Shown in pieces: positions 12,670 through 57,089 of a stretch of DNA of 64,000 nucleotides (positions are counted from its first letter, which is position 1; each line of letters begins with the position of its first letter). The position numbers were made by a program, and so were the translations under genes. The notes beneath the pieces are model-generated. The model was not told where the DNA came from, ran no database searches, and worked only from the letters and a program-made list of their open reading frames with translations. Source of the DNA: Schmidtea polychroa (taxonomy: Eukaryota); the NCBI GenBank assembly GCA_044892525.1, contig CM097886.1, forward strand, positions 62,062,001 through 62,126,000, read 5' to 3'.

Positions 12670-12876
12670 AGTAGTGGACGTATGGCCTTCACGGACCCAA
12701 CCCTCCCTAGCCGTCCAGCTTAAAAACTACTAATAATTAAACATTTTCATGTTTTTAACCATTTATTTTTACATCTTTTATTCATAAAAACCCCTAATTT
12801 ACCAACCCAAATCCTTAATCCCCTGACAGGAACCGAGGATCCAGGTTACATCCGTGAAGGCCATACGTCCACTACT
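12670..12876. repeat. 207-bp unit bounded by perfect 26-bp inverted repeats with Polinton-type AGTAGT...ACTACT ends
   Basis: agtagtggacgtatggccttcacgga (12670-12695) is the exact reverse complement of tccgtgaaggccatacgtccactact (12851-12876). No 6-bp TSD (gctcgg vs ataaaa). Confidence 0.85.
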
Positions 12877-12958
12877 ATAAAAAACTATAAAAATTTTAAA
12901 TATTAAAAACTAGCAATCGGCGCAATTTGCATACCCAATAAAAAAATTTTTTAAAAAA

Positions 12959-15900
12959 ATGAATATTGAAATTTTGAATATGTATAATTGTAACATGTGT
13001 AATAAAAGATTTAAAAATAGAACAGCATTAATATCACATGAAAAATCTAAAGAGCATTTATTAAAGACGGTTGGACTAAATGATACAAACTCAAAACTTT
13101 GTCCTAAATGTAAAGAAAGATATTTACTTTTAGGATATGATAAACATTTTAAAAACTGTATTGGGATTAAAAGAAATAGAAAAAAATTTGAATGTCCTAT
13201 ATGTAGATTGAAATTCACCACAGAATCTTATTATTTAAAACATTTAAAAGAATGTGCTATTGTTAAAAGAGATCCTGAAACTGAAGAAGATATAAAAGTT
13301 AGAGAAGAAGAAGAAGAATACGAAGAAGAAGAGATTGAAAAAGAAAAATATAATTGGGACAACTTTAACCATGTAGATAAATTTGAACAAACATTTATAT
13401 TCTCTTCATCTTTAGAGTATATAAATAAAAATAAAAAAAACATAAAAAAATCAATGGAAGATGCTATAAAAAAATTTGGTAAATCAAGATTTAATATTAT
13501 TAAATATAAAATTAGAATCCATTCAAGATATTGGAGAGGAGAAAATGTAAACACAACACCCTTGGATGCTATAATTGAAACATCTTATGATTATTTATTC
13601 TCAACCGATGGATTTAATAAAAAAATCAAAGAGATTATTCATAAAGTTGCAGATGAGCATAGAGTGGTTGAACAAGAATTAGGAGAGTCAAACCTAAAAT
13701 TCCTTTCATTTCAATCACTTGAAATTGAATATTGGAGAGGGCACCTCCAAATCCTAAATCATATATCCCTACACTCTTTACTTCTATTCATATTATAAAT
13801 GTTCGAAATAAGGATAATAAATGTTTCCAATGGTCAATCCTTGCACACTTACATCCTCAAGAAAATCATAAAGAAAGACCTGCAAAATATAAGCAATATG
13901 AAAATGAATTAATATATCCAAAAGGATTTGAACACCCAATGAAGATTGAATACATTCCAAATTTTGAAAAATTAAATAATATTAAACTTAACATTTATGA
14001 ATATATTTGCCAGGTGGGTGATAGGAAACATATTATTCCTATCCATGTTTCAGATAGAGAATTATCAGAACAAGATAAAAATAGAGAAATATATCTTTTA
14101 ATATTACAAGAACATAAAAGAGAACAAGTCTATAAGGAATATGATGATCTGGATGAGGAAGAACAATATTTAAATATTGAAGATGATCAAGAAGAAGACC
14201 TTGAAGAGGAAGATGAGGGGAAACAACATTATATTCTAATAAAAAACTTTCAAAGCTTTATGAGATCGAAAAATCACCACAGTGGTGGAACAACATGTAA
14301 ACGGTGTTTATATTATTCAGCTTCAGACATTGCAGCATTTAAACATGAAAGATTATGTTGTAAGAACTTGCCAGCATTAATTAAAATGCCGAGCAAGGAA
14401 ATGTCCACCATGCATTTTAAAAACTTTTCAAACCTGTTACAATCTTTAGGTGTAATATATGGAGACTTTGAAGCCATAAATATAAAACAGGATTTAGACC
14501 AAGAATATTTAAAAATAATAGAAAAAAATAATCTATTAGACTCTTGGAACCAAAGGACTGAAGGAATCTCCATGAAAAACGTTTTAAAATTAAATAATAA
14601 ATCATACACCATAAAACTAACAAAACGAGTAGCATCAACATATAAATTATTTTTTAAAAGTAATTACCCCGACCTCATAGACTCTGAAGAATTTTCATTT
14701 AGAGGATCCTCAGAAGAAGAAACTCTAAATCATTTTACTAAAGACATAAATGATTTAGAACATAAAATCTTTAAAACCTTAAAAACAAACTTCCCAATAA
14801 ACTTTTCAGACCAACAATGGGAAGAATATGAAGACTGCACAACTTGCTCGATGTGCAAACAGCCATTTGAGAATCAACTCTTTGAGGATGATATAAAAGT
14901 TCCTGACCATGACCACTTTAAAAAAGAAAATAATTATAGGGGAGCAGCCCATAAAAACTGCAATATAAATTGTAAAAGACCTGCATTTGTACCAGTTATA
15001 TTTCACAATCTTTTTGGTTATGACATCCACCTATTTATAAAACGTCTAGCTGTAAATGCTAAAAATTCCTTCAAAGTTATAGGACTGACAAAAGAAAAAT
15101 ATAAATGTGTTCAATACGGTCGATTAAAGTTTATAGATTCATTAAACTTTCTATCAATGTCCTTGGATGGAATAGCAAAAACCATGAAACCTGAAGACTT
15201 CACCCATACAATTGAAAAAGTATTAGTAAAAAATAATATTCCCCAGGAGGAATATAAAACCTGTTTGGCAAAAGGAATCTATCCTTATGATTACATCAAC
15301 TCATTTGATAGATATAATGAAACATCTTTACCCCCTCAAGACTTGTTTTTTTCAATATTAAATCAAACTGGTATAAGTGATCAAGAATATGCCCGAGGGA
15401 ATAAAATGTGGGAACTTTTCAAATGTAAAAACATTGGGGATTATACTGACATGTATTTATCCCTTGATGTTTATATCCTTGCAGATTGTTTTGAAGGATT
15501 TTGTAAGGCATTTGAATTAAAGCCTTATAATTATATAACATCTCCATCTTTAGCCTGGGATATTTTATTATATACAATGTGGACAACGGAGTCCTCTCGG
15601 ACTATAGAACTATTAACTGAAATCGACATGTTTAATGTACTTAAAGAAAATATTCGTGGAGGTGTTAGCTCCGTGATGGGAGATAGAAATATAACTGCAA
15701 ACAACTTTATATCTCTATACAAGAAATTCTTTAGTGAAGATCCTGAAGCAGACTTTATACAAATAAAAACAGAAGAGGATTCAAAATTAATAAAGGAAGG
15801 ATTATCAAATCCATCATAGATTATGTATATAGATGCAACAGCTTTATATTCAGGAATAATGACTCAATACCTTCCAATTGATAACTTCATTCAGGTTCCT

Positions 15901-17363
15901 GTCCCAGAGGAAAAGGATCTCCTAAGAAAACTTATGAATGAAATATTATCAACTGAAAAAGATTCAGAAGTGGGATATATAATAGAATGTGATTTAGAAT
16001 ATCCTAATGATATAAAATATGTAACTAGATACTTTCCATTTGCGCCAGTGAAAAGAAAAGTAGATTCTAATGAATTATCACCCCAACAAGATAGACCTAC
16101 AACTGTAAAACATTTATGTGATCAAACTGATAAACTTTGTATCTTTGTCATTATCGACTGTTACAATTTTATCTTTCTCATGGAATGAAAATAAAAAATA
16201 TACATTCTATAATAAAGTTTAGACAACTTCCATTCATGAAAACCTTTATAGAGGGAAATATTAAATCTAGGAATGAAGCAAAAAGAAATGGAAACGCTTT
16301 CCTCGATATGATTTATAAACTTTTAAATAATTCAGTCTTTGGAAAGACAATGGAAAATGTTGACAAATATACTCGAGTAGAATTATTGACAAATAGTTCA
16401 AAGGATTTTGCAAGGTATAATCGAATGCTTTCAAAACCTACATTTAAAAATGCAGAAATCTTTTCAGATAACCTAATAGCCGTTGAACTAAAAAATAGTG
16501 AAAAGACTTATAACAAACCAATCTTAATAGGTTTTACCATTTTAGAATTATCAAAACTTCAAATGTATGAAACCTATTATGATATTCTACTACCACATTT
16601 TAAAAATAGAATATCAATGCATGCAATGGATACGGACAGTATGTTTTTAAAAATATATACTAAAAACCTAAAAGAGGAAATATCTGAAAATGAAATCCTA
16701 AGGAATTTAATAAATTCATCTGGAGAATTATTCACCTTTAAAAATGAAAAACCTAATACACCAATAATTGATGCTGTATTTATTAGGTCCAAACAATATT
16801 CACTAGAAATGATTGAAGCCCCAAAGATTGAAACCCATTCAATTAGGATCGAGGATCAAACATTTTCGATACCAGTATTAATACCTCCAAACCTTGTAAC
16901 ATCTAAAGATAATAAAAATAAAGGTATACAGAGAGCAGTTTCTAGAACTATACCCCATCAAGACTATAAGGATATTCTAAATAAAAATCAACCAGATAAA
17001 ATAGTTGAGGTTCATCAACTTAAATCTGAAAAGCATAACATGTATTTAGAAGAATCAAATAAAATATCATTATCAAATTATGATGATAAGAGGTATATTT
17101 TATCAGATTTAAAAAAGACACTTCCAATTGGAAATGATATGATTCCACATATAAAAAATTTAAAGAACATTTCAGATCTTCAACTGTATGAACTTCGAAT
17201 ACTTTACCCTGAAAGAAGTCGAAATGACTATTTGGAATTACATCTTGAACAAAATCCTATAAACCTAAATGATTACATCTTAGACGTTAAAACCATACCA
17301 GCTTCAGTCATCAATGAAGGAAAGTCTCTGATAATAACTGAAAGTTTAAAAAATAAATTATAA
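12959..17363 (+). pseudogene. polB: Protein-primed family B DNA polymerase (pPolB) with N-terminal Zn fingers and an Endonuclease VII-like insert; 2 frameshifts and 1 stop
   Basis: ExoI YGDFEA, ExoII FHNLFGYD, ExoIII YLSLDV, motif A YIDATALYSG, motif B KLLNNSVFGK, motif C MDTDS; CSMC...DHDH...GAAH..CN insert. Frameshifts at ~13730 and ~16135; in-frame TAG at 15817-15819. Confidence 0.95.
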
Positions 17364-17478
17364 AATGACTGAAATACAATCAATTTTCGAAAACTTAAAG
17401 TCTTTAACAGATGATAAAATTTTATTAAAGTTTTGAATAAACCATCTGTTTCAATAATAAAAATTTTTTCTTTTATAG

Positions 17479-17766
17479 TTATAACATCTTTTTTATTTGC
17501 TCTTTTATTTTCTCTCGTTCTACCTTGGTTGAAGTCTTTCTGGCTTTAATCTTTTTATGGATTTTCATCAACCCTTGTTTCAGATGATCTCTTTCAGTCT
17601 CTATATCATTTATAATCCAAAGTAATACAGGCTCTCGAATAGCAAGTTGCGCAGCTTGCAGGGCTTTATCCTCTGAAGATTTCTCATTATATTCTTTTAA
17701 TGCAAGACTTGATTGCTTTTTAATAATAGGATTGCTTTTTATCAAATTTAAAACACGTTCATTCAT
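17479..17766 (-). CDS. Polinton hypothetical basic coiled-coil protein (95 aa)
   Basis: Intact ORF; its ATG overlaps the upstream stop (TATAAATGA). No recognisable family. Confidence 0.65.
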   Translation of the reverse strand: MNERVLNLIKSNPIIKKQSSLALKEYNEKSSEDKALQAAQLAIREPVLLWIINDIETERDHLKQGLMKIHKKIKARKTSTKVEREKIKEQIKKML

Positions 17767-18160
17767 TTATATTTGCTAAATAACAGGGTCTGGGGTCCGG
17801 AGGTTAAAGGTCCGGAGGTCAAAGGCTGTTGATCTAAAATATCTTCAACATCTTCAGGTCCGGAGGTCAAAGTTGTAGAGACTCCTGTCCCGGAGGCTAA
17901 AGGATCTTTCCTTTTATACTTCTTAGACTTGATGCATTTATGATTTTTTTCAACTACATTAGAACAATCATTACAATAAACACCCTTTTTCTCTATAGCC
18001 TTCCTCTTTTTAGTTGCATGCCTATAGGGAGAATCAATTCCTAAATCTTTTCTAATTCTTCTCATTGTAGAATCTGAAGTACCAATCATTTTACAAATTT
18101 GAGTCTGAGAAAAAGTAGGGTTTTCACTCTTTAATCTTGCAAATTCAAAGACTTTCTCTT
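17763..18160 (-). CDS. Polinton HTH DNA-binding protein with CxxC motif and LTSGP repeats; original start probably disrupted
   Basis: The frame is open upstream of the listed Met: FEFARLKSENPTFSQTQICKMIGTSDSTMRRIRKDLGIDSPYR is HTH-like. Also YCNDC...HKC. Confidence 0.65.
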
Positions 18161-18193
18161 TTTGTTGAATCTTGTTTAATCATTGAAAGTTGT

Positions 18194-18430
18194 TCAATTT
18201 TTTTTATAAAGCCATCCATTTATTAGTTGAGGAAATAAAGCAAAATAATATTCTCCTTTTCCAATTTGGTCTTGTATACTTAAAGATTTAAATTTAGTTA
18301 TTTTATTTAAATAATCAGGGTCATTAATTCCTACAAGATAAAAGATGTAACACTTTTCACCTATTCTAATTTTATCCTCTAATGATAAACTTCTAAAATC
18401 ATTCAACCTAGAGTTCATTATTTCTTCCAT
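18194..18430 (-). CDS. Polinton small protein with internal two-fold repeat (78 aa)
   Basis: FRSLSLEDKIRIGEKCY and FKSLSIQDQIGKGEYYF are repeated ~35 aa apart. Confidence 0.55.
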   Translation of the reverse strand: MEEIMNSRLNDFRSLSLEDKIRIGEKCYIFYLVGINDPDYLNKITKFKSLSIQDQIGKGEYYFALFPQLINGWLYKKN

Positions 18431-18456
18431 TTTTAAATTTAAAAATTATACAGGTC

Positions 18457-19020
18457 TTACGTCGAAGTCTTTAACCATTTCTCTCGTTGTAGTTTTTTAG
18501 AATATTCAGTCTTAGTTTTCAACTTTATAACTTCATTTTTAATATCCCTTATTATTTGATTTGATTTCATTATTTCATCATCTGTTAGGATTCCATCTTC
18601 CAAAGCTTTTAATTGAAATAAAAATAATTTTGATATCCCCAAGTCTATTGTCAAACAAACTTCACGATATAAACTTTTCTTTTTTGAAGTATAAGATAAA
18701 GAAAGTATTACAGTCAAGAAAGAATCTGCAACAGAAATACTTCCAAGTATTATAGGTGCAAGAGTAACAACTGGTAAAGTTATAGGTAAAACAATTGTAA
18801 GTATTGCAGATGTAAATCCTAAGGAGTAACCTATAATCTTTAAAGCTGTATTCCCTTTATTCCATCTTTTTTTAATTTTTTTATAATGCTTCAACAAGTC
18901 TTGTAAATGTAAAGTTTCTGATTTAAATTCTTTCACTCTCATGACTTCAAGTTCTGTAGGAGCTGATGGAGTCAATACTGGATAGACTACTTGACCTCCC
19001 GGACCTTTTGGACCTTCCAT
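18457..19020 (-). CDS. Predicted two-TM membrane protein, like the membrane-active (so-called GasderminX-type) ORF of adintoviruses
   Basis: HYKKIKKRWNK followed by two hydrophobic segments (IIGYSLGFTSAILTIVLPITLPVV; APIILGSISVADSFLTVILSL) and a helical tail. Family assignment from memory. Confidence 0.65.
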   Translation of the reverse strand: MEGPKGPGGQVVYPVLTPSAPTELEVMRVKEFKSETLHLQDLLKHYKKIKKRWNKGNTALKIIGYSLGFTSAILTIVLPITLPVVTLAPIILGSISVADSFLTVILSLSYTSKKKSLYREVCLTIDLGISKLFLFQLKALEDGILTDDEIMKSNQIIRDIKNEVIKLKTKTEYSKKLQREKWLKTST

Positions 19021-19028
19021 TTTAATAA

Positions 19029-19934
19029 TTAAAAAAATAAGACTTTATTATCTGGTACCAACGCTCGCATATTATAAGAAGCTCTTTTTGAGAGAATGTC
19101 TTTATACAATTCTATCAACGCTTTACGAACTTGATCAACATCAACCTTTTTTTCATAAAATATTAAATCTATATAACTTACAAGTGTGCTTTTAAAAATA
19201 ATATTCTTACTTTTAACTTTATGTGTTTTATGTGAATCAGTATTATCATGCCAATGTCCATGTGGTAAATCATAACCAGTTATTATAACTTCATCCTTTT
19301 CAAACATACTATTATAATCACATTTTACAAACCATTTCATTATTTCACCATCATCAGTAAATAAAAAGAAATAAGGATCAATAATCTTTACAACCATAAA
19401 ACAAGACCATTCTTTACTATTTGTTGTTATTAAAGTTGGTTCTATAAAATGTTTATATGTATGGGGTAATAAAGTTTTATTCTGTTCTAATTCAGCAGCT
19501 CTTTTTCTAATAATGTGTGTTGTATGAGACTCTAATTTAACAAGTCTTACATTAAATGATGCAATCATCTCATTTATTATATTATATATTGTATTAATTT
19601 TATTATCCATAAGTTTTTTATGCATAAGTCTTTTATTTTTTAAAATTGATATTGTGTCAGTTAACCTTTGAGTTTCTTTGGCTATCTTTAAGGCTTCTTC
19701 ATTTAATCGTTGTTCGATATTATTAAGCTTGGATAGCTTTTCATCTACATATTTTTTATTAGTTGCATCAAAGTCATCAATCGGAGGACCTAAATCTTTT
19801 ATCTTGTGAGCATTTAAATTTAAATGACCCTTCATTGAATCTCCTACTTCATTAACAAATCTTTTTTCTGTAAGGTTTATAACATCTTCATCTTTTAATC
19901 CATCATTATATAATCCTAATTTATTATAATTCAT
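19029..19934 (-). CDS. Putative fibre/receptor-binding protein (301 aa)
   Basis: GDSMKGHLNLNAHKIKDLGPPIDDFDATNKKYVD matches the phage tail-fibre-type GDxMxGxL...IxxLxxP...DAxxKxYVD unit. A coiled coil and a beta-rich C-terminus follow; adjacent to penton. Confidence 0.6.
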   Translation of the reverse strand: MNYNKLGLYNDGLKDEDVINLTEKRFVNEVGDSMKGHLNLNAHKIKDLGPPIDDFDATNKKYVDEKLSKLNNIEQRLNEEALKIAKETQRLTDTISILKNKRLMHKKLMDNKINTIYNIINEMIASFNVRLVKLESHTTHIIRKRAAELEQNKTLLPHTYKHFIEPTLITTNSKEWSCFMVVKIIDPYFFLFTDDGEIMKWFVKCDYNSMFEKDEVIITGYDLPHGHWHDNTDSHKTHKVKSKNIIFKSTLVSYIDLIFYEKKVDVDQVRKALIELYKDILSKRASYNMRALVPDNKVLFF

Positions 19935-19943
19935 TTTTATAGT

Positions 19944-20696
19944 CTAAACTTGTTTCAAATGTAAACACATTGAAATCTTTTCTCCATTAAAATTAATTAA
20001 TTCTCCATTTTCATCAACAATTTTAAAATGAATACTCATCAAGTTTTTTCTACATAAAGGTAAATAATTTGGAGGATTCATTCTTTCAACCATTTTATAT
20101 CCAACTCGAACAACATTAGAAGGAAAGGAATATAAAATATTTGCATGTTTACCATTATTATATGATCCCATTATACAATCACACTCTATATTTATAGAAT
20201 TTATATTTGTTATTTGTATAATATTTTTAGATTTAATAGTTGATGGTAAGTATTCTTTGACTTCAAAACCTAAAATAGTATGAAAGAAACTAGAAGCTCT
20301 AACATCAAGTCCAACTTCTTTTAAAGTTGCAATACATTTTGAAGTTTGAATATCTGCTTTTATTTCTATATTTCCATTTGTTTCTTTTAGAATTGCTTTA
20401 CCTAAATCTATTAATTCATATGCTCCTGGTTCGATTATTTTAGTGTAGTGGTCTTCAAATCCAGTATATTTCATCTCCCTCGTAAATATATTAAATTTAT
20501 TATTTTTAATATTTATATTAAAAATAGTATTAAAACAGCTAAACCACAAGAGTCCTAATTCATAATTTAAATTTTGATCTAAATTTATTGAATCTTCAAA
20601 ATTTATACTAAAATCTGTTTCATTTGAATTTATTAATAAACTTCTTGAATATTTATCTGACATTATGTTTACCATTTTTTTTAAATTATCTTCCAT
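19944..20696 (-). CDS. Minor capsid protein (penton, single jelly-roll)
   Basis: Typical Polinton mCP patterns: DFSINFEDSINLD..YELGL, INIECDCIMGSYNNG...LYSF, IHFKIVDENGELINFNGE. Confidence 0.85.
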   Translation of the reverse strand: MEDNLKKMVNIMSDKYSRSLLINSNETDFSINFEDSINLDQNLNYELGLLWFSCFNTIFNINIKNNKFNIFTREMKYTGFEDHYTKIIEPGAYELIDLGKAILKETNGNIEIKADIQTSKCIATLKEVGLDVRASSFFHTILGFEVKEYLPSTIKSKNIIQITNINSINIECDCIMGSYNNGKHANILYSFPSNVVRVGYKMVERMNPPNYLPLCRKNLMSIHFKIVDENGELINFNGEKISMCLHLKQV

Positions 20697-20698
20697 TT

Positions 20699-21139
20699 TT
20701 ATAATAGAGGTTTTAAATCTTTATAAATTTCTTGGATTATAGATTTAAAAGAGCAGTCTCCCTCTGAGGTATTTAATCTATACAAAACATATAAACTTAA
20801 AATACCACATATTTTAGTATTATTAGGTTGAACTTGTAAAGAATTAAAAATATATTGGGACTTCATCCAGTCTTCTACTTCTTTAGTACGTTTAATCCCA
20901 AAAGAATCAAAGTATATAGATTTATTATATATACAAACCCAATGAGATCCTTTTTCATTTGAATCTTGATAATTGATTATTATATTATCCTTTAGTCCTT
21001 TCAGACTTGACAATTCATCATTCATTAATATTTTAATTTTTAAATTTAAATAATCTGCATAATCTTTTAAATCAAAATTTGTTTTTACATTTATTCCAAA
21101 TGTTTTTAAAAAATCCAATATACTTGGAACAGCCTTCAT
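20699..21139 (-). CDS. Adenain/Ulp1-like cysteine maturation protease
   Basis: Catalytic H (GSHWVC), D (YFDSFG), oxyanion Q and C (QVQ...KICG). Confidence 0.92.
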   Translation of the reverse strand: MKAVPSILDFLKTFGINVKTNFDLKDYADYLNLKIKILMNDELSSLKGLKDNIIINYQDSNEKGSHWVCIYNKSIYFDSFGIKRTKEVEDWMKSQYIFNSLQVQPNNTKICGILSLYVLYRLNTSEGDCSFKSIIQEIYKDLKPLL

Positions 21140-21972
21140 TTTATATATTTATTAAATTTACTTTTTGAAAGCATTCCTTGTTTTAATAAATCTTTTGAAA
21201 TCTTTAAAATATCAGAATCTAAATTATTATGTCCTGCTTTTTTAGCAGCTAATAGTTTTCTCAATTCTATAAACTTAGAGATTGGATCTAGTTTGAAGGT
21301 CGTTCCGAGGCCTTCTTTAACAATATAGCCCCTTTCATTTTTATTTAAATAATTCTTTAAATCTTGAATATGTTTAGCTTTTGGACTACCTCTTACTAAT
21401 TTTATAAAATTTAAATATTTTTCAATTTCTTTAATATCATCTGAAGGATATCCACAAATTAATCTATAAAAATCATCTGTAAATTCATAGTCTAAATATT
21501 CATTATTATAAACATTTTGAGAATGAATATGATTTTTATTTTCAGAGTTTGTATATAAAGTAAAGTTTTGTTTATTAATTGTTATAATTTGATATCCTTC
21601 AGGAGTAATATTAAATATAGGTTTAATTGAATCAGATAAACCCTCTCTAATTTTAGGATCAACTTTAAGAGGTTTTGTATTTGAAAGTATTTCTTCTTCT
21701 ACACCTGAGAGTTTTCTACGTTTTCTTTGATTCCTTTCGGCGGTTGGTCCTTCTATGGCTTTAATACTTGGATTCTCTATAGTTTTAGGACCTTCAGTCT
21801 TTATGGCTTCTATCGCTTTAATTATCGGTTGTTGTTGTTGAGTCATTGTAGAATTTAATGCTAAAGATTCAGAGCGTTGAGTCGTATCTTTTATATTATA
21901 TGTATCTTGTTCTGATTGTAATTTTTTTAAAAGTGCTAATCTTTCTTCATATACCATTTTATATACCATCAA
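21136..21972 (-). CDS. Polinton conserved hypothetical protein (278 aa; probable start MVYEE at 21957)
   Basis: Intact ORF with C-terminal LRKLLAAKKAGHNN...LLKQGML helical motif of a kind recalled from Polinton ORFs. Confidence 0.7.
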   Translation of the reverse strand: MMVYKMVYEERLALLKKLQSEQDTYNIKDTTQRSESLALNSTMTQQQQPIIKAIEAIKTEGPKTIENPSIKAIEGPTAERNQRKRRKLSGVEEEILSNTKPLKVDPKIREGLSDSIKPIFNITPEGYQIITINKQNFTLYTNSENKNHIHSQNVYNNEYLDYEFTDDFYRLICGYPSDDIKEIEKYLNFIKLVRGSPKAKHIQDLKNYLNKNERGYIVKEGLGTTFKLDPISKFIELRKLLAAKKAGHNNLDSDILKISKDLLKQGMLSKSKFNKYIK

Positions 21973-22054
21973 TTTACCATTCTTCTTCTATTTGACCTTC
22001 GGACTCTTCTTCTTCTTCGGATTCAACAACTTGAAAATACAACCCTTTACCATT

Positions 22055-22507
22055 TTAAGTTTTACAGAGGCATCCATTCTTTAAAGATTTACATATTTTT
22101 TTTAAATCATCTTTATCTTTTGAAGATAAAGATTCAGATGTAGAAATTTGATTTTTTAAAAAATTATTTAAACCTCGACCTTTATAAGGATTGAGATATA
22201 GCCCCTTACCCTTCTTTTTCATTGAATCGATTTCAGTTTGTAATTTTTCTTTTTCTAGGTCTGTCTTTTGAGATTCTTTAGCTTTTTGAACTGTAGTTGC
22301 AATTCCTCCAGCTATTCCAGCTGCACCTGATAAACCTGTAATGATTGCAGGTATTAAAGCCATTAGGGGAAGAATCCCTCCAGTCTTCAGTCTTTCTTTA
22401 ACTTGTTCTTTTACATTTTTTCCAATAAAATATTTTTTTCCATCAATTACTACTGATTTATTTTTATTTGAATTTATGAATTCTTGTAAAGATTCTTCAG
22501 TTGTCAT
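22055..22507 (-). CDS. Adenovirus pX (pre-mu)-like core protein
   Basis: TGGILPLMALIPAIITGLSGAAGIAGGIATTVQ resembles the adenovirus pX tail GGILPLLIPLIAAAIGAVPGIASVALQ. Likely start MTTEE at 22507. Confidence 0.75.
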   Translation of the reverse strand: MTTEESLQEFINSNKNKSVVIDGKKYFIGKNVKEQVKERLKTGGILPLMALIPAIITGLSGAAGIAGGIATTVQKAKESQKTDLEKEKLQTEIDSMKKKGKGLYLNPYKGRGLNNFLKNQISTSESLSSKDKDDLKKICKSLKNGCLCKT

Positions 22508-22523
22508 TTTATAATAAATAAAA

Positions 22524-23309
22524 ATGGATACTTGGAAACCAATTTTAACTCGGCACAAGAGTAAATTTAATAATAAATTATTTCCTGATAATTTTAGATT
22601 ATTAATCGTTGGGTCTTCAGGTTGTGGAAAGAATGTACTTCTTTTGAGAATATTACTAGAAGAAGGGTTTTTAGATTATAATAATTTAATCTTTTATTCT
22701 ACAACCATAAATCAACCAGAGTTACAACTTTTGAAATGTGGATTTGAAAATAAATTAACTAAAAAAGCTATAATTGATATTTTTAAAAATCAACATAGAT
22801 GTCCTGATGAGGTTTTTCAACCTTGTGATATGATTGATTGGTACAAGGAAAAGATTTTAGAATCAGATATTGATAATAAAAATGATTATATTTATGAGGG
22901 TGAGGCAATTAAAGTTTTATTCTCTAATAAACCTGAAGATGTTTTACATTGTGATTTACTTCCTAAAGATGTAAAGAATCTAGTTATACTTGATGATGTT
23001 GTCAATATGAAAAACCAAGAGATTCAAAAGAGTTACTTTACACGAGGTCGACATAATAATTGTAATGTTATTTATATATCTCAAACTTATTATGCTTTAG
23101 ATAAAAACTCTATAAGAAATAATTCTAATTGTTTTATATTTTTTAAATTAGAAAAGCGTGATAAGAATATGATTTATAGTGATTTATTTTCAAATGTTGA
23201 ACCTGATAAGCAAATGTTTGATATGTTTGTAGATAATCATTGGAAAGAAAAATATAATTATATTTATTTGGATAGAGAAGAAGGTGAAATATGGAAATGT
23301 TTATTTTAG
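22524..23309 (+). CDS. A32/FtsK-HerA-type DNA packaging ATPase
   Basis: Walker A GSSGCGKN, Walker B LVILDD, and FTRGRHNNCNVIYISQ motif. Confidence 0.93.
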   Translation: MDTWKPILTRHKSKFNNKLFPDNFRLLIVGSSGCGKNVLLLRILLEEGFLDYNNLIFYSTTINQPELQLLKCGFENKLTKKAIIDIFKNQHRCPDEVFQPCDMIDWYKEKILESDIDNKNDYIYEGEAIKVLFSNKPEDVLHCDLLPKDVKNLVILDDVVNMKNQEIQKSYFTRGRHNNCNVIYISQTYYALDKNSIRNNSNCFIFFKLEKRDKNMIYSDLFSNVEPDKQMFDMFVDNHWKEKYNYIYLDREEGEIWKCLF

Positions 23310-23320
23310 AGCTTGTCGAC

Positions 23321-24060
23321 TTAGAAATCTGTTTTTTGTAGTTCATTATTATAAAATCTACCTAATATTTTTTCATTATTTAAATCAATGATGCTATATG
23401 TTATTGGAATTGTATAATGTATTTTATTTATAATAAAAATTTCATTTGTCCATTTTGCTGTGAATCCTTTTTCAAATTTATTTTTATATTTAAATATTCT
23501 TACTCGGTCACCAATTTTAAACTTTGGTTTTTCATTTACCACTTTAGCGGTTTCAGGATTTATAAGTTTTAAAGGATTCAAGGAAGCATTTAAAGGTGTT
23601 GATTTTATAGAACTATGTACATCATTATTATATTCATTTACAATCTTTTGTAACAATTTATTGTTCCATTTTTGTTTTCCAATAGCAGTAAAATATTTCC
23701 ACATTTTATTTTTTAATGTTCTATTTAATCTTTCAACCACAACTGCTTTTCCTTCGTTTTCTGTTGAATATAATTTAATATCATTTTCATTTAAAAACTT
23801 TGTAAAAACTTTGTTATAAAATTCTGTTCCTTTATCACACCATAAATATTTTGGAATTCTTTGATGTTCTTCAAATATATTTTCAAATGCTTCTGTAATA
23901 GAATATCCTGTTTTATTTTCTAAACATCTTGCAAAAGCAAATCTTGTATATAAATCTATTACTGTTAAAACTATTTTATATTTTTCAGGGTCTGATGATT
24001 TGGTTGGCATAAAGACTAAATCAGCGGACCATGTTTGATCTTTTTCATGTATTTGAACTT
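23321..24060 (-). CDS. Retroviral-type (rve, DDE) integrase domain; no chromodomain
   Basis: TWSADLVFM (D1, in frame just upstream of the listed Met), LWCDKGTEF (D2), VVERLNRTLK (E). Confidence 0.93.
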
Positions 24061-24220
24061 TTAAATATTTTTTATTTTTCTAAATTCATTGTGTAATTCA
24101 TTGGCATATTTTATTTGTGATTCTGTTGGGAATAATAAACTAGTCTTGGATGCACTCTCGAGTTGATTCTCAATCTCTGCTTGTTGAATAATCTTTTTGT
24201 TGGCAACATCTTTTGCTATT

Positions 24221-24700
24221 CTAGGGTGTCCAGCTCCAAAGGTGGCTCTGGCTCCAAAAAAAGATCTTACCTTTCATTGCTAATTTAACTAGAGCTCTTT
24301 GAATCTTTTCTTGGATTGATGGGTTTTCTATATTATTTAAATCATGTATTAAATTAACATCTGCAAGATGTCTATCCCTAAGGTCTTGAGAATTGTAAGC
24401 AATATCATGTTTTAAAGCTGCTTGATCAATTCTATTCACTGGTTCTTCTCCGGGTTTGGGATTATTATTTTCATCAAGTCTAATATCTAGACGGGTTCCA
24501 GGTCCAGTAAAATTGTGATCGAATAAATGTCTTTCACCTGGATATTTTTCAGTTGTAAAGGGTTTCAATATTGAAGATGTTGTTTTTGAAGATTGAAGAT
24601 CTCCTCCAATTCGAGATGTATGTTTTTTAGTTTTAACATGACTGGCTTTATGATGTTTTCTAACTTGACAATTACAAATTTCACATTTCCAATAAGACAT
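24221..24700 (-). CDS. Zn-finger plus parvovirus VP1u-type phospholipase A2 domain (PLA2X); frameshifted from the downstream integrase
   Basis: Ca-binding loop FTGPGT and catalytic DQAALKHDIAY; N-terminal CEICN...HVKTKKH finger. Confidence 0.88.
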   Translation of the reverse strand: MSYWKCEICNCQVRKHHKASHVKTKKHTSRIGGDLQSSKTTSSILKPFTTEKYPGERHLFDHNFTGPGTRLDIRLDENNNPKPGEEPVNRIDQAALKHDIAYNSQDLRDRHLADVNLIHDLNNIENPSIQEKIQRALVKLAMKGKIFFWSQSHLWSWTP

Positions 24701-24708
24701 TTTAAAAA

Positions 24709-25972
24709 CTATAAATTACCCCGTACATTTTCAATTATTGAAATCTTTCCACCATATAATTTCATTTCTATTTTCTTTTCTTCTAATATTAATGTATATA
24801 CTTTAGCTTTAAAATTAGAATCCTTTGTTATATGAAGTGTAACATCAACATTATTTATAGCTAGACGATCATCTTGATCGGAAACAAAATATAGAATATA
24901 AATTTTTGAAATCTTCTAAACTTAATTGTGGTTCAACTTTAAAATCATAACATGTTTCAATATAATTTAGATATGGGAATATGTTTTCATTATTTTCAAT
25001 ATTAAATTCCATTCTATTTATTGGATAATAAGAATTATTTAATTGAATTTGTATCGATTTTAAATTATCATCTCCAATCTTTTGAATAAACAAGTTGTTA
25101 TTTTTTTGGAAAGATGAATCTGTTTCTTTGAATCCAATTAAGATATATCTCGGTCGGTATGCAAAGTTTGCTACCTTTATAGAATATGTTGAACCCTCTG
25201 TCATACTAAATTCACTACAGATTCTATTTAAATAATTTACATTTATAGATTTGTTGGAATTTAATCTTTCAAGGAGTTTAATCTCAGAATGTGGATTTAA
25301 TGTCCATTCAGGTATATGTAATTCAAGTGTTGATAATTTTAATTTAGCTTTTGTATCTACAGCTCCATAGAACAATTTTTTATCACCTTCTAGTCTATTA
25401 CAGTTTAATTCTATAAAAACATTATGAAGTATACGATTATAGTTTTGAAGGAATCCAAATAAGTGTTTTAATTCAAAATAACCTTCAAATTTTTTAGATT
25501 TATAAAGTTCAACTCTTTTATAGTATCCAAAATTTACATCTAAACCATCTTTATCTAAATCCCCTTTATTAACATCAGGAATCCAACCTGTTAATTCTCC
25601 ATATTCATTTTTATAATCACAACTAGTTAATATAAAATTTAACATTGTAGAATATATTCCTGGATATAAAACAGTTTCAATTTCTGATGATCCTAGTTTT
25701 TATCTCATGTTGGAGAATAAATTTGGAAAGAAATTGTTTTCTAGAGTTATATCTTTGTTTGCTTCAATTTCTAATTCAATTTTATAATATAATTTAGCAT
25801 TACAAATATCTATAGGGTTTGATGTTTGAAGAGATTGAAAAACTATATCACCCCTACGATTTAAGTTTGCAATAGATCCTGAAGTTGGGGAGATTTTTAA
25901 AATATCAATTTTTTTAATTTCATGCATAAATTCTTTATTGTAATCAAGATTTAATTTATTTTTATTATTCAT
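24709..25972 (-). pseudogene. Major capsid protein (double jelly-roll), ~420 codons, with 1 stop and 1 frameshift
   Basis: In-frame TAA at 25700-25702 links the 90-aa and 258-aa ORFs. A frameshift near 24880 restores SDQDDRLAINNVDVTLH...LYGGKISIIENVRGNL*. Motifs include ELKHLFGFLQNYNRIL and RPRYILIGF. Confidence 0.85.
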
Positions 25973-26076
25973 TTTTTATATTACTAAATTAGCAATTGCG
26001 CAGCTTGCTAGTTTTTAAGATTTAAAATTTTTAGAATTTTATAAATATAAAATTTTAAAAAATGACAAAAATCCGA

Positions 26077-26159
26077 ACCCTAATAGCGCAGTGGGAATAG
26101 ACTGGCACTGTGGTTCAAATGGATAGTGGTTCAAATCCCAACTGACATTATTTTTTTTT
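26077..26159 (+). ncRNA. tRNA-like Pol III unit (degenerate; GTG at anticodon position) with oligo-T terminator
   Basis: A box TAGCGCAGTGG (26084-26094), B box GGTTCAAATCC (26128-26138) at canonical tRNA spacing, GTG at positions 34-36, T9 run at 26151-26159. Stems pair poorly, so not a functional tRNA. Confidence 0.55.
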
Positions 26160-26297
26160 CAACATAAAATAATATTAAAAATTTGAAAATAATATTGAAA
26201 ATAATTTTGAAAATAGTGTGGGTATCTTGTATATTTTATTTTTTTTATTAATTAATTAATTTTTAAACATAAATATGAAAAAAAAATTATTGAAATG

Positions 26298-26390
26298 GGT
26301 GTGGTGGCGAACCGGTAATTATCGCCACCAGTCTTTCGAACACCCCCCGGATCGATCCCATAATGTGCACATTTATTTCTTGGTTGTTTT
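26298..26390 (+). ncRNA. Second possible Pol III unit
   Basis: A-box-like TGGCGAACCGG (26305-26315) and B-box-like GGATCGATCCC (26349-26359), the same 44-nt offset as unit 1; TTTT at 26387-26390. Each box has a mismatch to consensus. Confidence 0.35.
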
Positions 26391-26859
26391 CGGACCTCTT
26401 TCGGATTCGCTTTCGAATTCATTTGTACTTTCGAGCAGCACGCTTAAAACCGAGAAGCTGCTATTATTGAATTGATTCTGATGTATGAGTCTGGCCAGCT
26501 TGTATATTGTAAGAGATTTGATAAACGAAAGAGGTTGAAATGATCCGGATCAAAAAAAACTGTTGAGAGGACAGTGAAAAAAAACAAAACAAATACCACT
26601 GTCCTCTCAGAGCAGATTTACTATTTCATAAATTTTTTTATTCTTCAAGGCATCAAGATTAAGATTTTTAAAATAAATAAATAATGATCCTAAAAAATTA
26701 AATTACAGTACACAGGATGGCAAAAATGAGGGACAAGACTTCTAAAACAATTAAGGAAAAAACCACTTCTTGACTAATCTAGTTAAAAATGGGCTTTCAA
26801 ACATTTGTCATTATTTTATAGATCATTTATTAACTATTATTAACTATTATTATCTTTAT

Positions 26860-36573: not shown

Positions 36574-36891
36574 TGTTAGAAGCTATAACATTTAATTCTT
36601 CTGTCATCAAAATAAATTACTAAGACTATTAAATCCAAAAATTATATTTCATTAAATCTGATTATATAAACAAATATTCTTGGGACATTTTCTAAATTTT
36701 AATTTCAACCAAATATCAACATACCATCGCATTCATACTTGAATTTCAATTTTATTAAAAATTATTTTATTTTAAAATTTCAATTATCATTTCAATTTTA
36801 ATATCTTAAAATAATTTAAGTTTCAATTAAAATTTTACAAATTTTAATCATGAACTAATTTAATTTAGTATTTTAATTTTAACTCCTCACA
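36574..36891 (-). repeat. 3' LTR
   Basis: tgttagaagc...aactcctcaca; matches 41316-41633. Confidence 0.96.
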
Positions 36892-39800
36892 TCCCCCTTT
36901 TTTAAAATGTTTGATCTTCTCAACATTTCTGACTACCATCTTCCCATTTTGATCTTTAAGTAAGTAGCTCCGTTCATGTATTTTCTTTATCACTTTGTAT
37001 GGCCCTTCCCACCTTGCATCGTCTTTATTTCGAATTTCTTGTTTGATCAAAACCAAATCTTCCATTTCAAAATCTCTCACTGTTTTGCTTATTTTTGGTT
37101 TTAGTGTTTTATCCTCTATTCTCTTTTCCATATTTTCTCTCTTTATTTCTTTATTCGAGTACCATTTCATTCTGTCGATTTTCCTCCCAAATATAATCTC
37201 TGCTGGGCTTACTCCCGTTGTTTTTTGAACTGTTGCATTTAAAGTATATTCTATTTCTGGCACTATATCAGCCCAGTTTTTCCTTCCTCCTTCATTCAAT
37301 GACGCGTTAATATACTCTCTGATTGTTCTGAATTGTCTTTCAATAATACCATTCGTGTTATGGTGATATGGGCTTGAGAAAATTAATTCAATGCCAGCTG
37401 CCTTCGCTAGTTCTTTTATACTTCTTGCTTCAAAGTTCTTCCCACAATCTACATGAAGTTCTTTTGGAGCTCCAAACTTTAATATCCATTTATTTAATAA
37501 CGTCTCACTAATTGTTTTTTCGTCTTGCTTGTTTATGGCCGTTAATGAGATGTATTTACTATAGTGGTCAATGATTCCGCAAATATATTTCTTTTTGTTG
37601 AACGTTTCTTTCAATGGCCCACATATATCCATATATATCTTCTCGAATGGTTCTGTACTCTTTATTGTTTGAGTTTCCTCCTTTGTCTTGGTTGTTATCG
37701 TTTTCATTTTCTGACATCTTTCGCAGTTCTCAATTACCTTTTTTACTTCCGTTGCTAAATTTTCCATGTCGCAGTTATTCTGGATATATTTCGTTACTTT
37801 CTGTGCACCTGCATGGCACAGCAATACGTGTACTTCTTTTATCATCCTCTGTCTATTATCTGACGGTATCCATATTTTACCTTGCTTAGTTAGTACCGTG
37901 TTGTTTTCCATTATGAACTTACAGTCTTTATTTTCTAACTTATTCTTTATTTCTTGGACCTCCATATTGTCATTTTGCCACTTGTTATATCCGCCTTCTG
38001 CTGTTACTGTTAATATTCTGGTTTTAATTTTGCCGGTTTTTGGGTCTTCGTGTTCCATCATACACTGTACACATGTTCCGCATGTTTTCCTGGATAGCAT
38101 ATCCGCGTTTGTATGGCTTGTTCCTTTCCTGTATTCCATTTTAATATCCAGGCTGCTTAAATAGTTGATCCATGTCTGGAATTGAGCAGTTATTGGTTTC
38201 TTAGTTGTTACCATAAACGTAATAGCTTTATGGTCCGTTCTCAGTACGAATCTCTTACCATATAAGTAATGGTTGAAATGTTTACAAAAATAGTATATTG
38301 CCAATAATTCTTTTCTGGTAATGCAGTATCCTTTTTCGTGGCTGCTCATCGCATGTGAACCATATGCAATGACATGTTCATGTCCTTTTTCATCCTTTTG
38401 CGAAAGAACTGCTCCAATAGTATCGAAGCTCGCGTCTGTGTCTAATATAAATTCTTTTCTGAAATCTGGAAATACCAATACTGGGGCGGTTATCAATGCT
38501 TCTTTCATTTCCCCGAAAGCCTTTTCACACATCTCTGTCCATCTTATTTTCTCATTGTTTTTTCCGCATATGCTTTCTAGTGCTCTTGCCTTCTTTGCAT
38601 AGTCTTTTATGAACCGTCGATAATAGTTACAGATACCCAGAAAGCTCCTCAGATTCTTTACACATTTTGGCTTTTGAAATGATTGTATTGCTTCTATCTT
38701 AGTATTATCTGTTTGTATGCCGTCTTTATTTATTATGTGTCCTAGAAACTTCACTTCTTTTCTAAATATTTGACATTTTTCCGGGTTCAATCTTAGTCCT
38801 GCTGTTGCGATCTTCCCTAGGACTTTTTCAAATATGTTATAATGGTCTTCTTCTGTCTTTGTGAATATTAGGATGTCGTCTAAATATACCATCACTCCAT
38901 CTTTCCACAAATCTTTCAATACTTTCGTCATTAATTCTTGAAATGTTCCTGGTGCCGCTGCAATACCGAACGGCATCCTGTTAAACAGAACTGTCCTTCT
39001 TTTGTTGAGAATACTGTTTTCTCTTGAGATTCTTTATCTAACTTCACTTGGTAATAAGCATTTCCCAAGTCGATTGAGCTAAAATATCTGGATCCGTGTA
39101 GGATGTCTAAAATTTCATCTACATTTGGCATTGGAAATGCTTGTCTTTCTGTTATCTTGTTTAATTGTCTGAAGTCTAGACAAAGCCTGATGTCTTTTTT
39201 CTCTTTCTTCCATACACAAACTAAAGGTGTGTTCCACGGTGAATTACACTTCCTAATTATTCCGTTGTTTTCTAGATTTTTTATTGCTTCCTCAATCTTG
39301 TCTTCCAAATTTATTGGCTGACGTCTCGGTTTAATCATTATTGGCTCTCCTTTCGTGATGATCTTATGTTTTATCAGATTGGTACACCCAATGTCCCATT
39401 TATCTGCCATAAAAACATTCTTGTTTGCCTGAAATATTTCTAACAGTCTCTTATTTCCGGTAACCTTTAAAACGTCGATGGCATGACGTAATCTTTCTTC
39501 ATCTGTTATAATCCGCCCAAATCTAGCTTCTATTTCGCAAATGAAATCACTACGTTTTTCATGTTCTTCTAGTATACATTTCAATTCTATACCAAATATC
39601 CTTTGTAGTTCTACTCCTCCAATAATTTCTGGTATTAAATTCTTTACTATAATGAATGTTACATTTCTTTCAATACTGCCCATTTTAACATTGATGTTTA
39701 TTTTACCCATAGTTTCTAATCTACTGTTGTTTGCACATCTTAGCGATTCCCTTGTTTCTAATATTTCGATATTTTCTAATCTATCAATTACAGATTTAGC

Positions 39801-40283
39801 CATCACATTAATTCGCGCTCCTGTATCCAATAAACAATCTACTTTCCGCCCTTGGATATCCAGTGTTGTACTCGGTCTACCTTGCATTATATTATATGTT
39901 ATTACTGGACTTTTTTGTTCTTCTACTGACAAAATATTCTGCTCTCTAGTATCTTCTACAATTTCATTAATACACACGTCTCCATTTTTCTTGAGGAATT
40001 TGTAAATTTTCTCTATAGTTCTTTCCTCGTGTTTTACTAATTCATTTGCTTTACACTCCTCTTTAAATTTTTTCTGAATTTCCTTATCATTCGACTTTTT
40101 GATTTCTACACTACTATTATTATTAATATCACGTTCAAAAACACTACAATCTTTATCAATCATACAATCATCATACATACTTAAATTACACATACCGTTA
40201 ACATTCATTCTTTGGTTGAAATCAATATTACTTAGTAAATTGCTCCGATCAATGTCCCGTTTGACGGAGCGTGCTCGTTTGGG
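36865..40283 (-). CDS. pol: Pol polyprotein (protease, RT, RNase H, integrase), one 1-bp frameshift
   Basis: LLDTGA protease, YLDD RT, LDTDAS RNase H, HVLLCH...CERC zinc finger, DDE core with IIERQFR, GPY motif. Frameshift at the AAA run 38983-38985 (QFCF-NRMPFG). Confidence 0.95.
36892..36903 (-). promoter_or_regulatory. Polypurine tract
   Basis: AAAAAAGGGGGA on the minus strand, directly before the 3' LTR. Confidence 0.9.
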
Positions 40284-41316
40284 TCATTCTCCCTGTTATA
40301 CTCGTCTGGCTGGCTTGACTGTTTTGTATTCATCATCTCATCATCAGACTCGATAGCTGCAATATCTTTTCTGTTATATTGTTGGTTTCCCCATTGTCTT
40401 TGATGTACGTTCCTTGATTGATACATATCTTCCCTTTGTTGATAGGTATTTCTTTGAATTCTTCCTCCTGACATCTTCCTTTGGTCTTGATCTCTTCCTT
40501 GATTTCGTCTTCCCATATTTGTGTAGCACTCTCTTTCTTTGTGTCCTCGTGCATTGCATCTATGACATTTGATTGTTGGGCATTCTCTTCGTATGTGACC
40601 TTCAACACCACATGCATAACATTGAAATCTTCTTTTTATATTACATTCTCTGCTACTGTGTCCCGGTTTTTGACACGTCCAGCATTCTATCACTTTAATT
40701 CTTGTCTCTGGTTTCCATTCGTTGATTTTTCTCTTCGTGGCTCCAACTTGTACTACATCTCTATAAGTTCTTCCTCCAGTTGTAGGTCGTATTGATCTCA
40801 CCGTGTTTACTTGTTCAATAACCTTGTTAACTTTTTCTATCTTCTTTATAGTTTCTTTAATTTGTTCCGCCGTTTTGAGATCTTTCATTTCGATTTCTTT
40901 CCTGACTTCTTTATCTTTTACACAATGTGTCAATAAACATTTCTGAATTTCTTCCTCATTCCAAGTGTGTGAGGCCAATTTTTTAGTCATTTTTGATATT
41001 TTCTCTATAAATATTTCCGCTGATTCGTTACCTTGCTCGTAGTTCAAGGCTTCTCCTAAGTCATCAATCAATGACGTTGGTCGATGAAAGCTGCTCTTAA
41101 TTTCTGTTCAACGGTTTTACCTTCTGCGGTTTCATATTCTTCAATCAAAGTTCTGTCCAGAAGTGTAATAACTAGTACCATTTGGGTCTTCACTGGTGTC
41201 TTCGTTATTTCAAAAAACCTCTGACATTCTTTGATAAATAATTCGAGGTCATCTCCTCTGTGGAATTTTTCTGGAAGTAATCTTCCAATAAGCAGATCCG
41301 TTGGAATGGTCGCCAT
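40232..41316 (-). CDS. gag: Gag with three CCHC zinc knuckles, one 1-bp frameshift
   Basis: CWTCQKPGHSSREC, CYACGVEGHIRREC, CHRCNARGHKEREC. Frameshift at the AAA run 41087-41089 (AAF-HRPTSLIDD). Confidence 0.9.
40242..40283 (-). promoter_or_regulatory. Programmed -1 ribosomal frameshift signal
   Basis: C CCA AAC heptamer in gag frame (40283-40277), 6-nt spacer, stem-loop gctccgtcaa...ttgatcggagc (40270-40242). The -1 frame stays open into pol. Confidence 0.75.
41307..41315 (-). promoter_or_regulatory. Primer-binding site (TGGCGACCA; tRNA-Arg(UCG)-like, inferred)
   Basis: Immediately follows the 5' LTR; complementary to a tRNA 3' end ...UGGUCGCCA. Confidence 0.75.
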
Positions 41317-41633
41317 GTTAGAAGCTATAACATTTAATTCTTCTGTCATCAAAATAAATTACTAAGACTATTAAATCCAAAAATTATATTTCATTAAATC
41401 TGATTATATAAACAAATATTCTTGGGACATTTTCTAAATTTTAATTTCAACCAAATATCAACATACCATCGCATTCATACTTGAATTTCAATTTTATTAA
41501 AAATTATTTTATTTTAAAATTTCAATTATCATTTCAATTTTAATATCTTAAAATAATTTAAGTTTCAATTAAAATTTTACAAATTTTAATCATGAACTAA
41601 TTTAATTTAGTATTTTAATTTTAACTCCTCACA
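41316..41633 (-). repeat. 5' LTR
   Basis: Same 318-bp sequence as 36574-36891; TSD ATGAC at 41634-41638 and 36569-36573. Confidence 0.96.
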
Positions 41634-55522: not shown

Positions 55523-57089
55523 TATTTAACTGCAAAAGAAACATTTTAAATTCAACTCACATTAATCTCAACAATCAAACAATTAATGTCATTTATAAAA
55601 CGTAGAAAACAGAAATCAGACTTTCCATTGTTATTTTACATATATCTGTCACCGCAAAATGGAAGTTAATTATAATGCTAATATTTTGTAGAATATTTTT
55701 TTGAAATAACATTTATTATTCGAAATGACAATATAAATTTATATATAAATTTATATATAAATTTATATATGTATATCAGTTTATTTCCATCACATTTATA
55801 ACACTCAATTTCATCTTGAATATCATGACTAATTGACTCTTTTAAATAATTTGAAAAGCGAGAATTATAAAAATTATTTTTATTAATTAATAAAATAAAT
55901 AAATATAAGATATAAAAAGAATTTTAAATTATTATTTTTTTCATATTTTTAATGAATTGATTTGTTTAAAATTACAGATATTCGATAATGCAGACGATTG
56001 GGTTTGTTTGTTTTAATGAAATCGTATTTCTATTCAAAAATGTTTGAAAAAATTACAATTACTTTACTTTCATTTCCTGTTTTTTATTAAATTTATCGAT
56101 TTTTATTTTGTAATTAGTTAATCTTACAAATTATTTTAAAATTTTTAATCAAATATTTTCAATAATGGCTATTTAAATTTATTAATTATTAAAATTTGTA
56201 ACAATATAAAATATTTAATAATTATAATTAATAAATTAAAAAAACATCTCCAACCTGACGGAAGATTAATAATTGAAACTTTAATTTCTTTTAAATATTA
56301 AATAAACATATTTCACAAGAAGTTTTCAATAACTATTTATTCCCATATTTGAAATAATAAAGGCGGCTCGACATTTATTTCATGTAAAACTTGTAAATTC
56401 TTTATAATTTAAACAAATTATTTAATAAAACTTTGTCATCTCTCATAATAATTTGTCAACAAAAATATAGCTTTATCAATCATAGGCTCTGGCATGGGGC
56501 TCAGCGTGGCGAGACATTTATACACTGCAGAAATTTTTATACCGTATTCATTCCATCGGATAGTTTGTTTTATCTTTGTAATTAACATTTTTACTTTTAT
56601 TATTGCCTATAGCAGATTTAACACAAAATATGTGTCCGAGTGAACATAGCTTCCTTATTTTCTAACACATGACTTTGAACCTAGATCCGAATAAATAGAA
56701 GTGAATAAACATTTCATTGAGAGCATGCATTTTAATAAAAAGGTTGTTGACAAATACATTCAATGAAATACATTCAATGAATGAAATAGGAGTCAATATC
56801 ACAAGAATCAACCGAGATGTTTCAACAATTCCCAGTCCCTATTAGCAAAAGTAAATGATTTGTTAAATAAAATAGCACTGAATAAAGTCGGAGTCAAAAA
56901 TCTGTGTCAAATAGAAAAAACATTGATCTATAGTCGAAAGCTAAATAAAGAAAAATGAAAATCTAAATAAACATTTAGTGTATGCATTGTGTTATTAAGT
57001 CGATACATAAGTTTCTAACTCCTCATTTAAAAATTCATATTTAAAAAAAGTCCTTCAAAATAGATGAACTATTATTTTAAAATGGAGAT

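Follow-up and report, generated by a model that had tools for sequence, protein, structure and literature searches.

A short stretch of the Schmidtea polychroa genome, close to a viral-type capsid gene, carries the promoter signals of a tRNA gene without folding like one, which raises the question of whether it belongs to a mobile element and, if so, what it does there. A first-pass annotation of the surrounding 64,000 nucleotides (the window, i.e., the whole stretch of DNA analyzed here) had read it either as a Pol III unit borne by a Polinton, perhaps analogous to adenoviral VA RNA, or as a pseudogene of host tRNA-His that marks where the element integrated. In type 2 promoters, TFIIIC binds the A and B boxes and positions TFIIIB upstream. 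We refer to the unit in the window as gamma, to distinguish it from two related unit types, alpha and beta, that occur in sibling copies of the element.

The tRNA-like observation at 26077..26159 was confirmed. The A and B boxes of gamma lie 44 nt apart, compared with 43 to 44 nt in host tRNA-Cys, -His, -Lys and -Arg, so the spacing is that of a tRNA, and a T9 run follows as annotated; on sequence alone, this is a type 2 Pol III promoter with a T-run terminator, as in VA RNA. A strict A/B/T pattern, composed after the site had been seen, matched once in the window and never in 200 simulated 64-kb windows with the same dinucleotide make-up. The ATG of the capsid N-terminal ORF lies at 25972 on the minus strand, 105 bp from 26077, which agrees with the earlier estimate of ∼100 bp. 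The cloverleaf stems are indeed broken: in tRNA register, gamma forms 8 of 21 pairs (acceptor, 3/7; D, 1/4; anticodon, 2/5; T, 2/5), while the same count gave full or near-full stems for host Cys, His and Lys tRNAs. ARAGORN predicted no tRNA in the 64-kb window, and no Rfam match at an E value of ≤1 was obtained between 24000 and 28000. Gamma is thus not recognized as a tRNA gene (RF00005) by cloverleaf, ARAGORN or Rfam, and among its paralogues only beta scores. Its predicted fold was no better than that of shuffled sequences (z of −0.3 to −1.4). GTG does occupy tRNA positions 34 to 36 (26110-26112), but its status as an anticodon did not hold up. The 11-nt word GTGGTTCAAAT occurs twice in gamma, at 26110-26120 and, 16 nt later, at 26126-26136, where it is the B box; since GTG opens the first copy of this word, the "anticodon" is better read as a piece of a local duplication. 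A BLAST match at 55868-55953 was weak and covered AT-rich flank only.

Table 1. Coordinates of gamma, its parts and the carrier element in the window
Feature	Position	Strand	Basis or remark
Left terminus of element, begins AGTAGT	12670..12876	+	No Pol III unit at that end in the window copy
Polinton/adintovirus core genes: zinc finger, pPolB (in pieces), A32-type ATPase, rve integrase, PLA2-like protein	12959..24700		ORFs and Pfam
Major capsid protein gene (double jelly roll), split into two ORFs here	24869..25972	-	PF21738, E value of 1.4e-16; head-to-head with gamma
Gamma, degenerate tRNA-register type 2 Pol III unit	26077..26159	+	Faces outward from the element; pattern matches and sampled Polinton-borne copies
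A box TAGCGCAGTGG	26084..26094	+	9/11 positions invariant among alpha, beta and gamma (read from alignment)
First GTGGTTCAAAT copy, duplicate of B-box word	26110..26120	+	Contains the "GTG anticodon"; two-word pattern
B box GGTTCAAATCC	26128..26138	+	Same letters as host tRNA-Cys B box
T9 run, predicted Pol III terminator	26151..26159	+	T-run 3' of the B box in alpha, beta and gamma
Strongly folded stretch accompanying gamma (candidate RNA or single-stranded DNA structure)	26294..26620	+	z of −5.3 on +, −3.6 on −

The carrier has the gene set of a Polinton/Maverick element according to Pfam, namely, pPolB, an rve integrase, a packaging ATPase, a jelly-roll capsid protein and a PLA2-like gene. 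PLA2 is reported to be typical of Alpha virion modules (PMC8502044), and the PLA2-like gene therefore leads us to classify the carrier, on gene content, as a Polinton of the alpha-adintovirus type. A first look with the capsid N terminus gave 2,562 candidates in the 781-Mb genome, indicating a huge family. The window copy is damaged, with a fragmented capsid gene and polymerase gene and with foreign sequence taking over the right end after ∼26714. Gamma had been placed at the viral right end, which is correct for sibling copies, but the window copy is cut off at that point and has no right terminus; any further units there are also missing.

Several features of the elements and their surroundings were observed along the way. 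The terminal ∼207 bp (12670-12876) are flanked by a perfect 26-nt inverted repeat starting with AGTAGT, so that a panhandle could form at each end of the element. Terminal sequences differ between sibling subfamilies, several of which have the same inverted-repeat layout. Another inverted repeat in the window (25994-26043 and 12878-12927) is subterminal; it was rejected as the element end, as siblings extend beyond it to AGTAGT termini. At ∼26706-26760 the element stops shortly past the folded stretch listed in Table 1, and the next sequence begins with CAGTAC after TA, resembling a Tc1/mariner end. Elsewhere, elements directly abut one another, head-to-tail or nested (L017, L224, L058 and L270), and internally deleted copies (L147 and L203) still hold the gamma module. 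Many copies have a small lysine/glutamate-rich ORF just upstream of gamma (L061 at about 1050-1270, L075 and L077), which sits between beta and gamma where beta exists and is missing in other copies. The window also contains a Gypsy-type LTR retrotransposon on the minus strand (36574-41615), whose identical 300-nt LTRs mark it as young.

Gamma recurs with the element throughout the genome. Thirty of 40 scored best DNA matches to the window site were fetched, and 29 were other copies, 28 of which continue into the capsid gene; 17 of the 29 reach the right terminus within 1.5 kb. An exact gamma 22-mer had 307 genome matches and a two-word gamma pattern at least 1,959 (control, 0), i.e., about 2,000 copies. 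We drew 40 copies that had not been fetched before from the initial 100 entries in the list of 22-mer matches, which all fall on contig C1, and all 40 lay in Polinton sequence (28 by the capsid gene, 11 by left-end genes and 1 by the integrase/ATPase). For beta, an exact 28-mer gave 1,329 matches; 28 of 30 fetched loci adjoin Polinton ORFs, and the other 2 contain the same beta-gamma module. Siblings have zero to three units of the three types, at one or both ends, each type with an A box, a B box and a T-run, and relaxed scans found no fourth type. Every mapped unit points outward, head-to-head with the first gene, which is the capsid gene at the right end and the zinc-finger/polymerase genes at the left end.

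Eight of 11 tested end pairs had perfect 6-bp target duplications and 1 had 5/6, the right end not being reached in the remaining 2, so that siblings have the inverted termini and 6-bp target duplications of Polintons, while the window copy itself has no right end. Six of the eight perfectly duplicated pairs enclose gamma, and two are unit-less at both ends. As all 40 sampled gamma copies were in Polinton sequence and gamma lies inside the 6-bp duplications, we conclude that the unit is part of the element and belongs neither to the flank nor to a free SINE. The first-pass reading of a Polinton-borne Pol III unit is thus supported with regard to location and promoter anatomy. It had also named two outcomes that would speak against this reading, absence from siblings and dispersed copies unlinked to Polintons, and neither occurred: other Polinton copies do have gamma within their duplication-bounded span, and none of the 40 sampled copies was unlinked.

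The frequency of the unit was assessed in samples chosen by capsid. Among 30 elements picked by a 55%-identical distant capsid, blind to the unit, gamma was present in 28, the arrangements being alpha-beta-gamma (14 elements), gamma (8), gamma-gamma (6) and none (2); gamma was the type found in every unit-bearing element (28/28). In a window-biased sample of 50 loci, chosen with the capsid N terminus of the window copy, 12 had no right-end unit and 5 had gamma-alpha-beta. Nineteen left-end stretches were examined, 4 of which did not get to a left end, and gamma was found at 4 of the 15 ends reached. The complete, duplication-bounded elements L054 and L076 have no unit at either end; given these two and the 12 of 50 capsid-picked loci without a right-end unit, we conclude that the Pol III unit is not essential, that is, not required in cis. 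In this genome, all 101 matches scored in the search with the 55%-identical capsid belonged to the same family. Two scans of viral contigs found no relatives. A metagenome scan returned nine contigs with 24 to 53% identical capsids and no convincing unit; in L182 and L184, the two inspected, the capsid gene lies in the interior and neither contig showed a recognizable terminus, which makes the lack of a unit uninformative.

Only beta retains a clear trace of its source. Two of the three beta loci with an Rfam tRNA hit reach the cutoff of 29 bits (34.4, 32.0 and 26.7), beta retains GCA at the anticodon position, and its inter-box part matched host tRNA-Cys better than any of 500 shuffles, with 145 to 261 of 500 shuffles scoring as high for Lys, Arg and His. 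Beta thus appears traceable to host tRNA-Cys. Between the boxes, neither gamma nor alpha matches any of the four host tRNAs compared (Cys, His, Lys and Arg): against Cys, 109 and 160 of 500 shuffles, respectively, scored as high, and against His, the figure for gamma was 134 of 500, so that gamma does not qualify as a tRNA-His derivative. Gamma and alpha have in common with beta the register, AATAG after the A box and, mostly, GGT before the T-run, and we infer, within the four host tRNA types compared, that both probably descend together with beta from a Cys-like tRNA. Alpha is without the B-box C61 and has internal T4 runs and TTA at the anticodon position (e.g., L075:584-662) and may be weakly active or no longer functional. 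The host genes for tRNA-His (about 1,900 motif matches), tRNA-Cys, tRNA-Lys, tRNA-Arg and 7SL lie in long tandem arrays, found at G000:C4:64268781, C1:269250378, C4:76658343 and C2:31932512, each onward.

Promoter signals, i.e., the boxes and their spacing, are conserved while the fold of gamma is not. In 98 gamma copies from loci that had been selected without regard to gamma, variants that recur in at least three copies affected 2 of 20 box columns versus 29 of 63 other unit columns (Fisher P = 0.003, a rough value like the other column P values, given that columns depend on one another and that the alignment of AT-rich flanks is poor), and the A-box change was a permitted A/G. Restricted to box versus inter-box columns within gamma, the difference was not significant (2/20 versus 10/32; P = 0.10). 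When alpha, beta and gamma were compared, with positions counted by eye, 17 of 20 in the boxes were invariant versus 7 of 33 inter-box positions (P = 9 × 10−6), with an A-to-B spacing of 43 to 44 nt throughout and an inter-box identity of 12 to 16 of 33. Eleven gamma variants folded at z values of −1.5 to +0.3, no two-sided change was seen in the consensus fold of 18 recurrent gamma variants, and the gamma cloverleaf, with 44% of its pairs formed, was no better than shuffles (490/500). Beta folds at z values of −2.3 to −2.9 with an intact T-stem (5/5), three pairs of which differ on both sides from host Cys, and acceptor-like pairs number 5 to 6 of 7 in alpha, beta and the commonest gamma and 3 in the window variant. 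The beta T-stem and the acceptor-like pairs are hints of constraint at the RNA level.

The ∼330-nt folded stretch next to gamma travels with it at either element end and was present in 162 of 180 loci. It starts 135 nt past the T9 of gamma, two T-runs separate it from the unit, and no convincing A or B boxes were seen within 26294-26620. Twelve of its 86 consensus pairs are G-U, and none of the 86 had a two-sided change in 40 aligned copies (of 66 distinct full-length ones). Its 5' end bears what we took to be a resemblance to 7SL; a 7SL origin was rejected, with 107 of 300 shuffles scoring as high against host 7SL. If the family has a VA-like RNA, 26294-26620 would be a better candidate than gamma.

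Two explanations would detach gamma from the element. One takes gamma for the head of a separate, tRNA-derived SINE that inserted into Polintons. This would account for a tRNA-like sequence with A and B boxes in about 2,000 copies, but the invariable Polinton context of the 40 gamma copies, the beta loci, all by Polinton ORFs or in the same beta-gamma module, and the fixed position within the element largely refute this reading, which we consider highly improbable. The other, which sees in gamma a pseudogene of host tRNA-His at the site of integration, drew on GTG at positions 34 to 36 of the window copy. This half of the original interpretation was not borne out and its probability is negligible: gamma lies inside duplication-bounded elements at unrelated sites, its inter-box part is unlike host tRNA-His by the shuffle comparison above, 15 of 18 recurrent gamma variants have A at position 33, and the GTG itself is part of the duplicated B-box word.

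For a unit that belongs to the element, we tentatively favor, at a probability of roughly 45%, a genuine Pol III/TFIIIC unit that would exert its effect in cis, next to the first genes of the element. A host tRNA gene would have been captured, tRNA-Cys for beta and, by common ancestry, for alpha and gamma, and then duplicated inside the element. TFIIIC would bind the gamma boxes, with TFIIIB placed upstream, in the ∼100-bp gap ahead of the capsid start, and with Pol III occupying the unit, transcribing it and stopping at the T-run to yield an ∼80-nt oligo-U RNA. The result might be an open patch or barrier, occupied by Pol III, that adjoins the promoters of the first genes and keeps the element ends open. 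A fission yeast tDNA barrier has been reported to require both TFIIIC and Pol III (PMC2040200). Because decay has affected the fold but not the promoter, and because the unit invariably stands just outside the first gene, we place most weight on a role in cis. The published tDNA barrier is orientation independent, which would leave the fixed outward direction of gamma unexplained. It is possible, if rather doubtful, that the units instead make trans-acting small Pol III RNAs, VA- or TMER-like in role, as abundant 5'-triphosphate oligo-U RNAs titrating La, Dicer/Argonaute or tRNA-sensing factors and blunting host silencing. The A box, the spacing and the T-run straight after the tRNA 3' position in all three types exceed the needs of a bare TFIIIC site, beta folds better than shuffles with its T-stem pairs changed on both sides, and unit-less elements could be supplied in trans; VA RNAs have themselves been hypothesized to derive from captured tRNA genes (PMC6599070). 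Yet gamma, the type in all 28 unit-bearing distant-capsid elements, is without conserved structure, neither a VA nor any other Rfam match was obtained, and no hairpin lies between its tRNA-like part and the terminator. Of the 12 sequencing runs listed, 7 cover part of the stretch and none is recorded as RNA, which speaks neither for nor against expression. An unlikely further reading makes the unit a passenger, a tRNA gene captured once subterminally, copied through slippage and recombination and multiplied along with its carrier, with box conservation reflecting ancestry or past selection. The number (0 to 3), order (alpha-beta-gamma or gamma-alpha-beta) and side of the units vary freely, unit-less elements integrate normally, internal duplications are frequent, and the contrast of box and inter-box columns within gamma is not significant. 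However, units decaying neutrally to such low inter-box identity would not have retained their spacing and 17 of 20 box positions, and gamma is kept in 28 of 30 elements despite heavy surrounding rearrangement.

We conclude that gamma, as judged from its copies, is element-borne and real, and its function in cis is a proposal. Polintons are annotated almost solely by their proteins; a cassette of degenerate Pol III units that escapes tRNA finders and recurs thousands of times gives them a non-coding layer as well. About 2,000 added B boxes could draw on the host TFIIIC pool. Natural copies with zero to three units, at one end or both, coexist in this genome and allow a direct test of the question. 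A more far-reaching picture, which we regard as quite improbable, is that of an animal Polinton with its own small-RNA cluster, in which up to three diverged tRNA-derived Pol III RNAs and the ∼330-nt structured RNA, made from thousands of copies, would disarm host RNA defenses. If true, the VA-RNA strategy would have arisen independently in an integrating adenovirus relative, with the steps from an intact tRNA-Cys (beta) to a fold-less gamma still visible. By title and the start of the abstract, we found no degenerate outward-facing Pol III cassettes in animal Polintons in the literature, where subscription papers, Repbase and supplements could hold cases.

Known systems resemble gamma in different respects. 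The tDNA chromatin barrier is likewise an A/B-box unit at a boundary near Pol II genes, whose RNA product may be irrelevant; it was shown for host tRNA genes of fission yeast (PMC2040200), whereas gamma consists of degenerate copies on a mobile element, with barrier activity as a proposal. tRNA genes have been reported in polinton-like viruses and virophages (558 hits in 8,300 genomes; PMC12220804), and predicted tRNAs have been reported in MELD viruses (PMC8502044). Like gamma, these are tRNA-type sequences inside Polinton-related genomes and are thought to be host captured; however, they are recognizable tRNAs of protist or other non-animal elements with a proposed role in aiding translation, while gamma has no cloverleaf and is a repeated, outward-facing subterminal cassette (PMC12220804, PMC8502044). 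The TMERs of MHV68 form, like alpha, beta and gamma, a cluster of diverged viral tRNA-like Pol III units, but TMERs have pre-miRNA hairpins cotranscribed ahead of their terminator, where gamma has its T9 directly after the tRNA-like part (PMC4378190). That run starts 12 nt past the B box, with no hairpin between, which sets gamma apart from the TMERs. Adenoviruses belong to the same lineage of jelly-roll, protein-primed DNA viruses as Polintons. Their VA RNAs I and II have an internal A/B-box Pol III promoter, several paralogues and a proposed tRNA origin, as does gamma, but they are about 160 nt long, with an apical stem, a central domain and a tetrastem, and inhibit PKR (PMC4378190, PMC6599070). 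Gamma, at about 80 nt, has no stable or conserved fold, no covariation and no Rfam match, and the suggested analogy to VA RNA is thus not supported for this unit. What the two would share is a history, as a host tRNA worn down into a viral Pol III element is the very route proposed for the VA RNAs.
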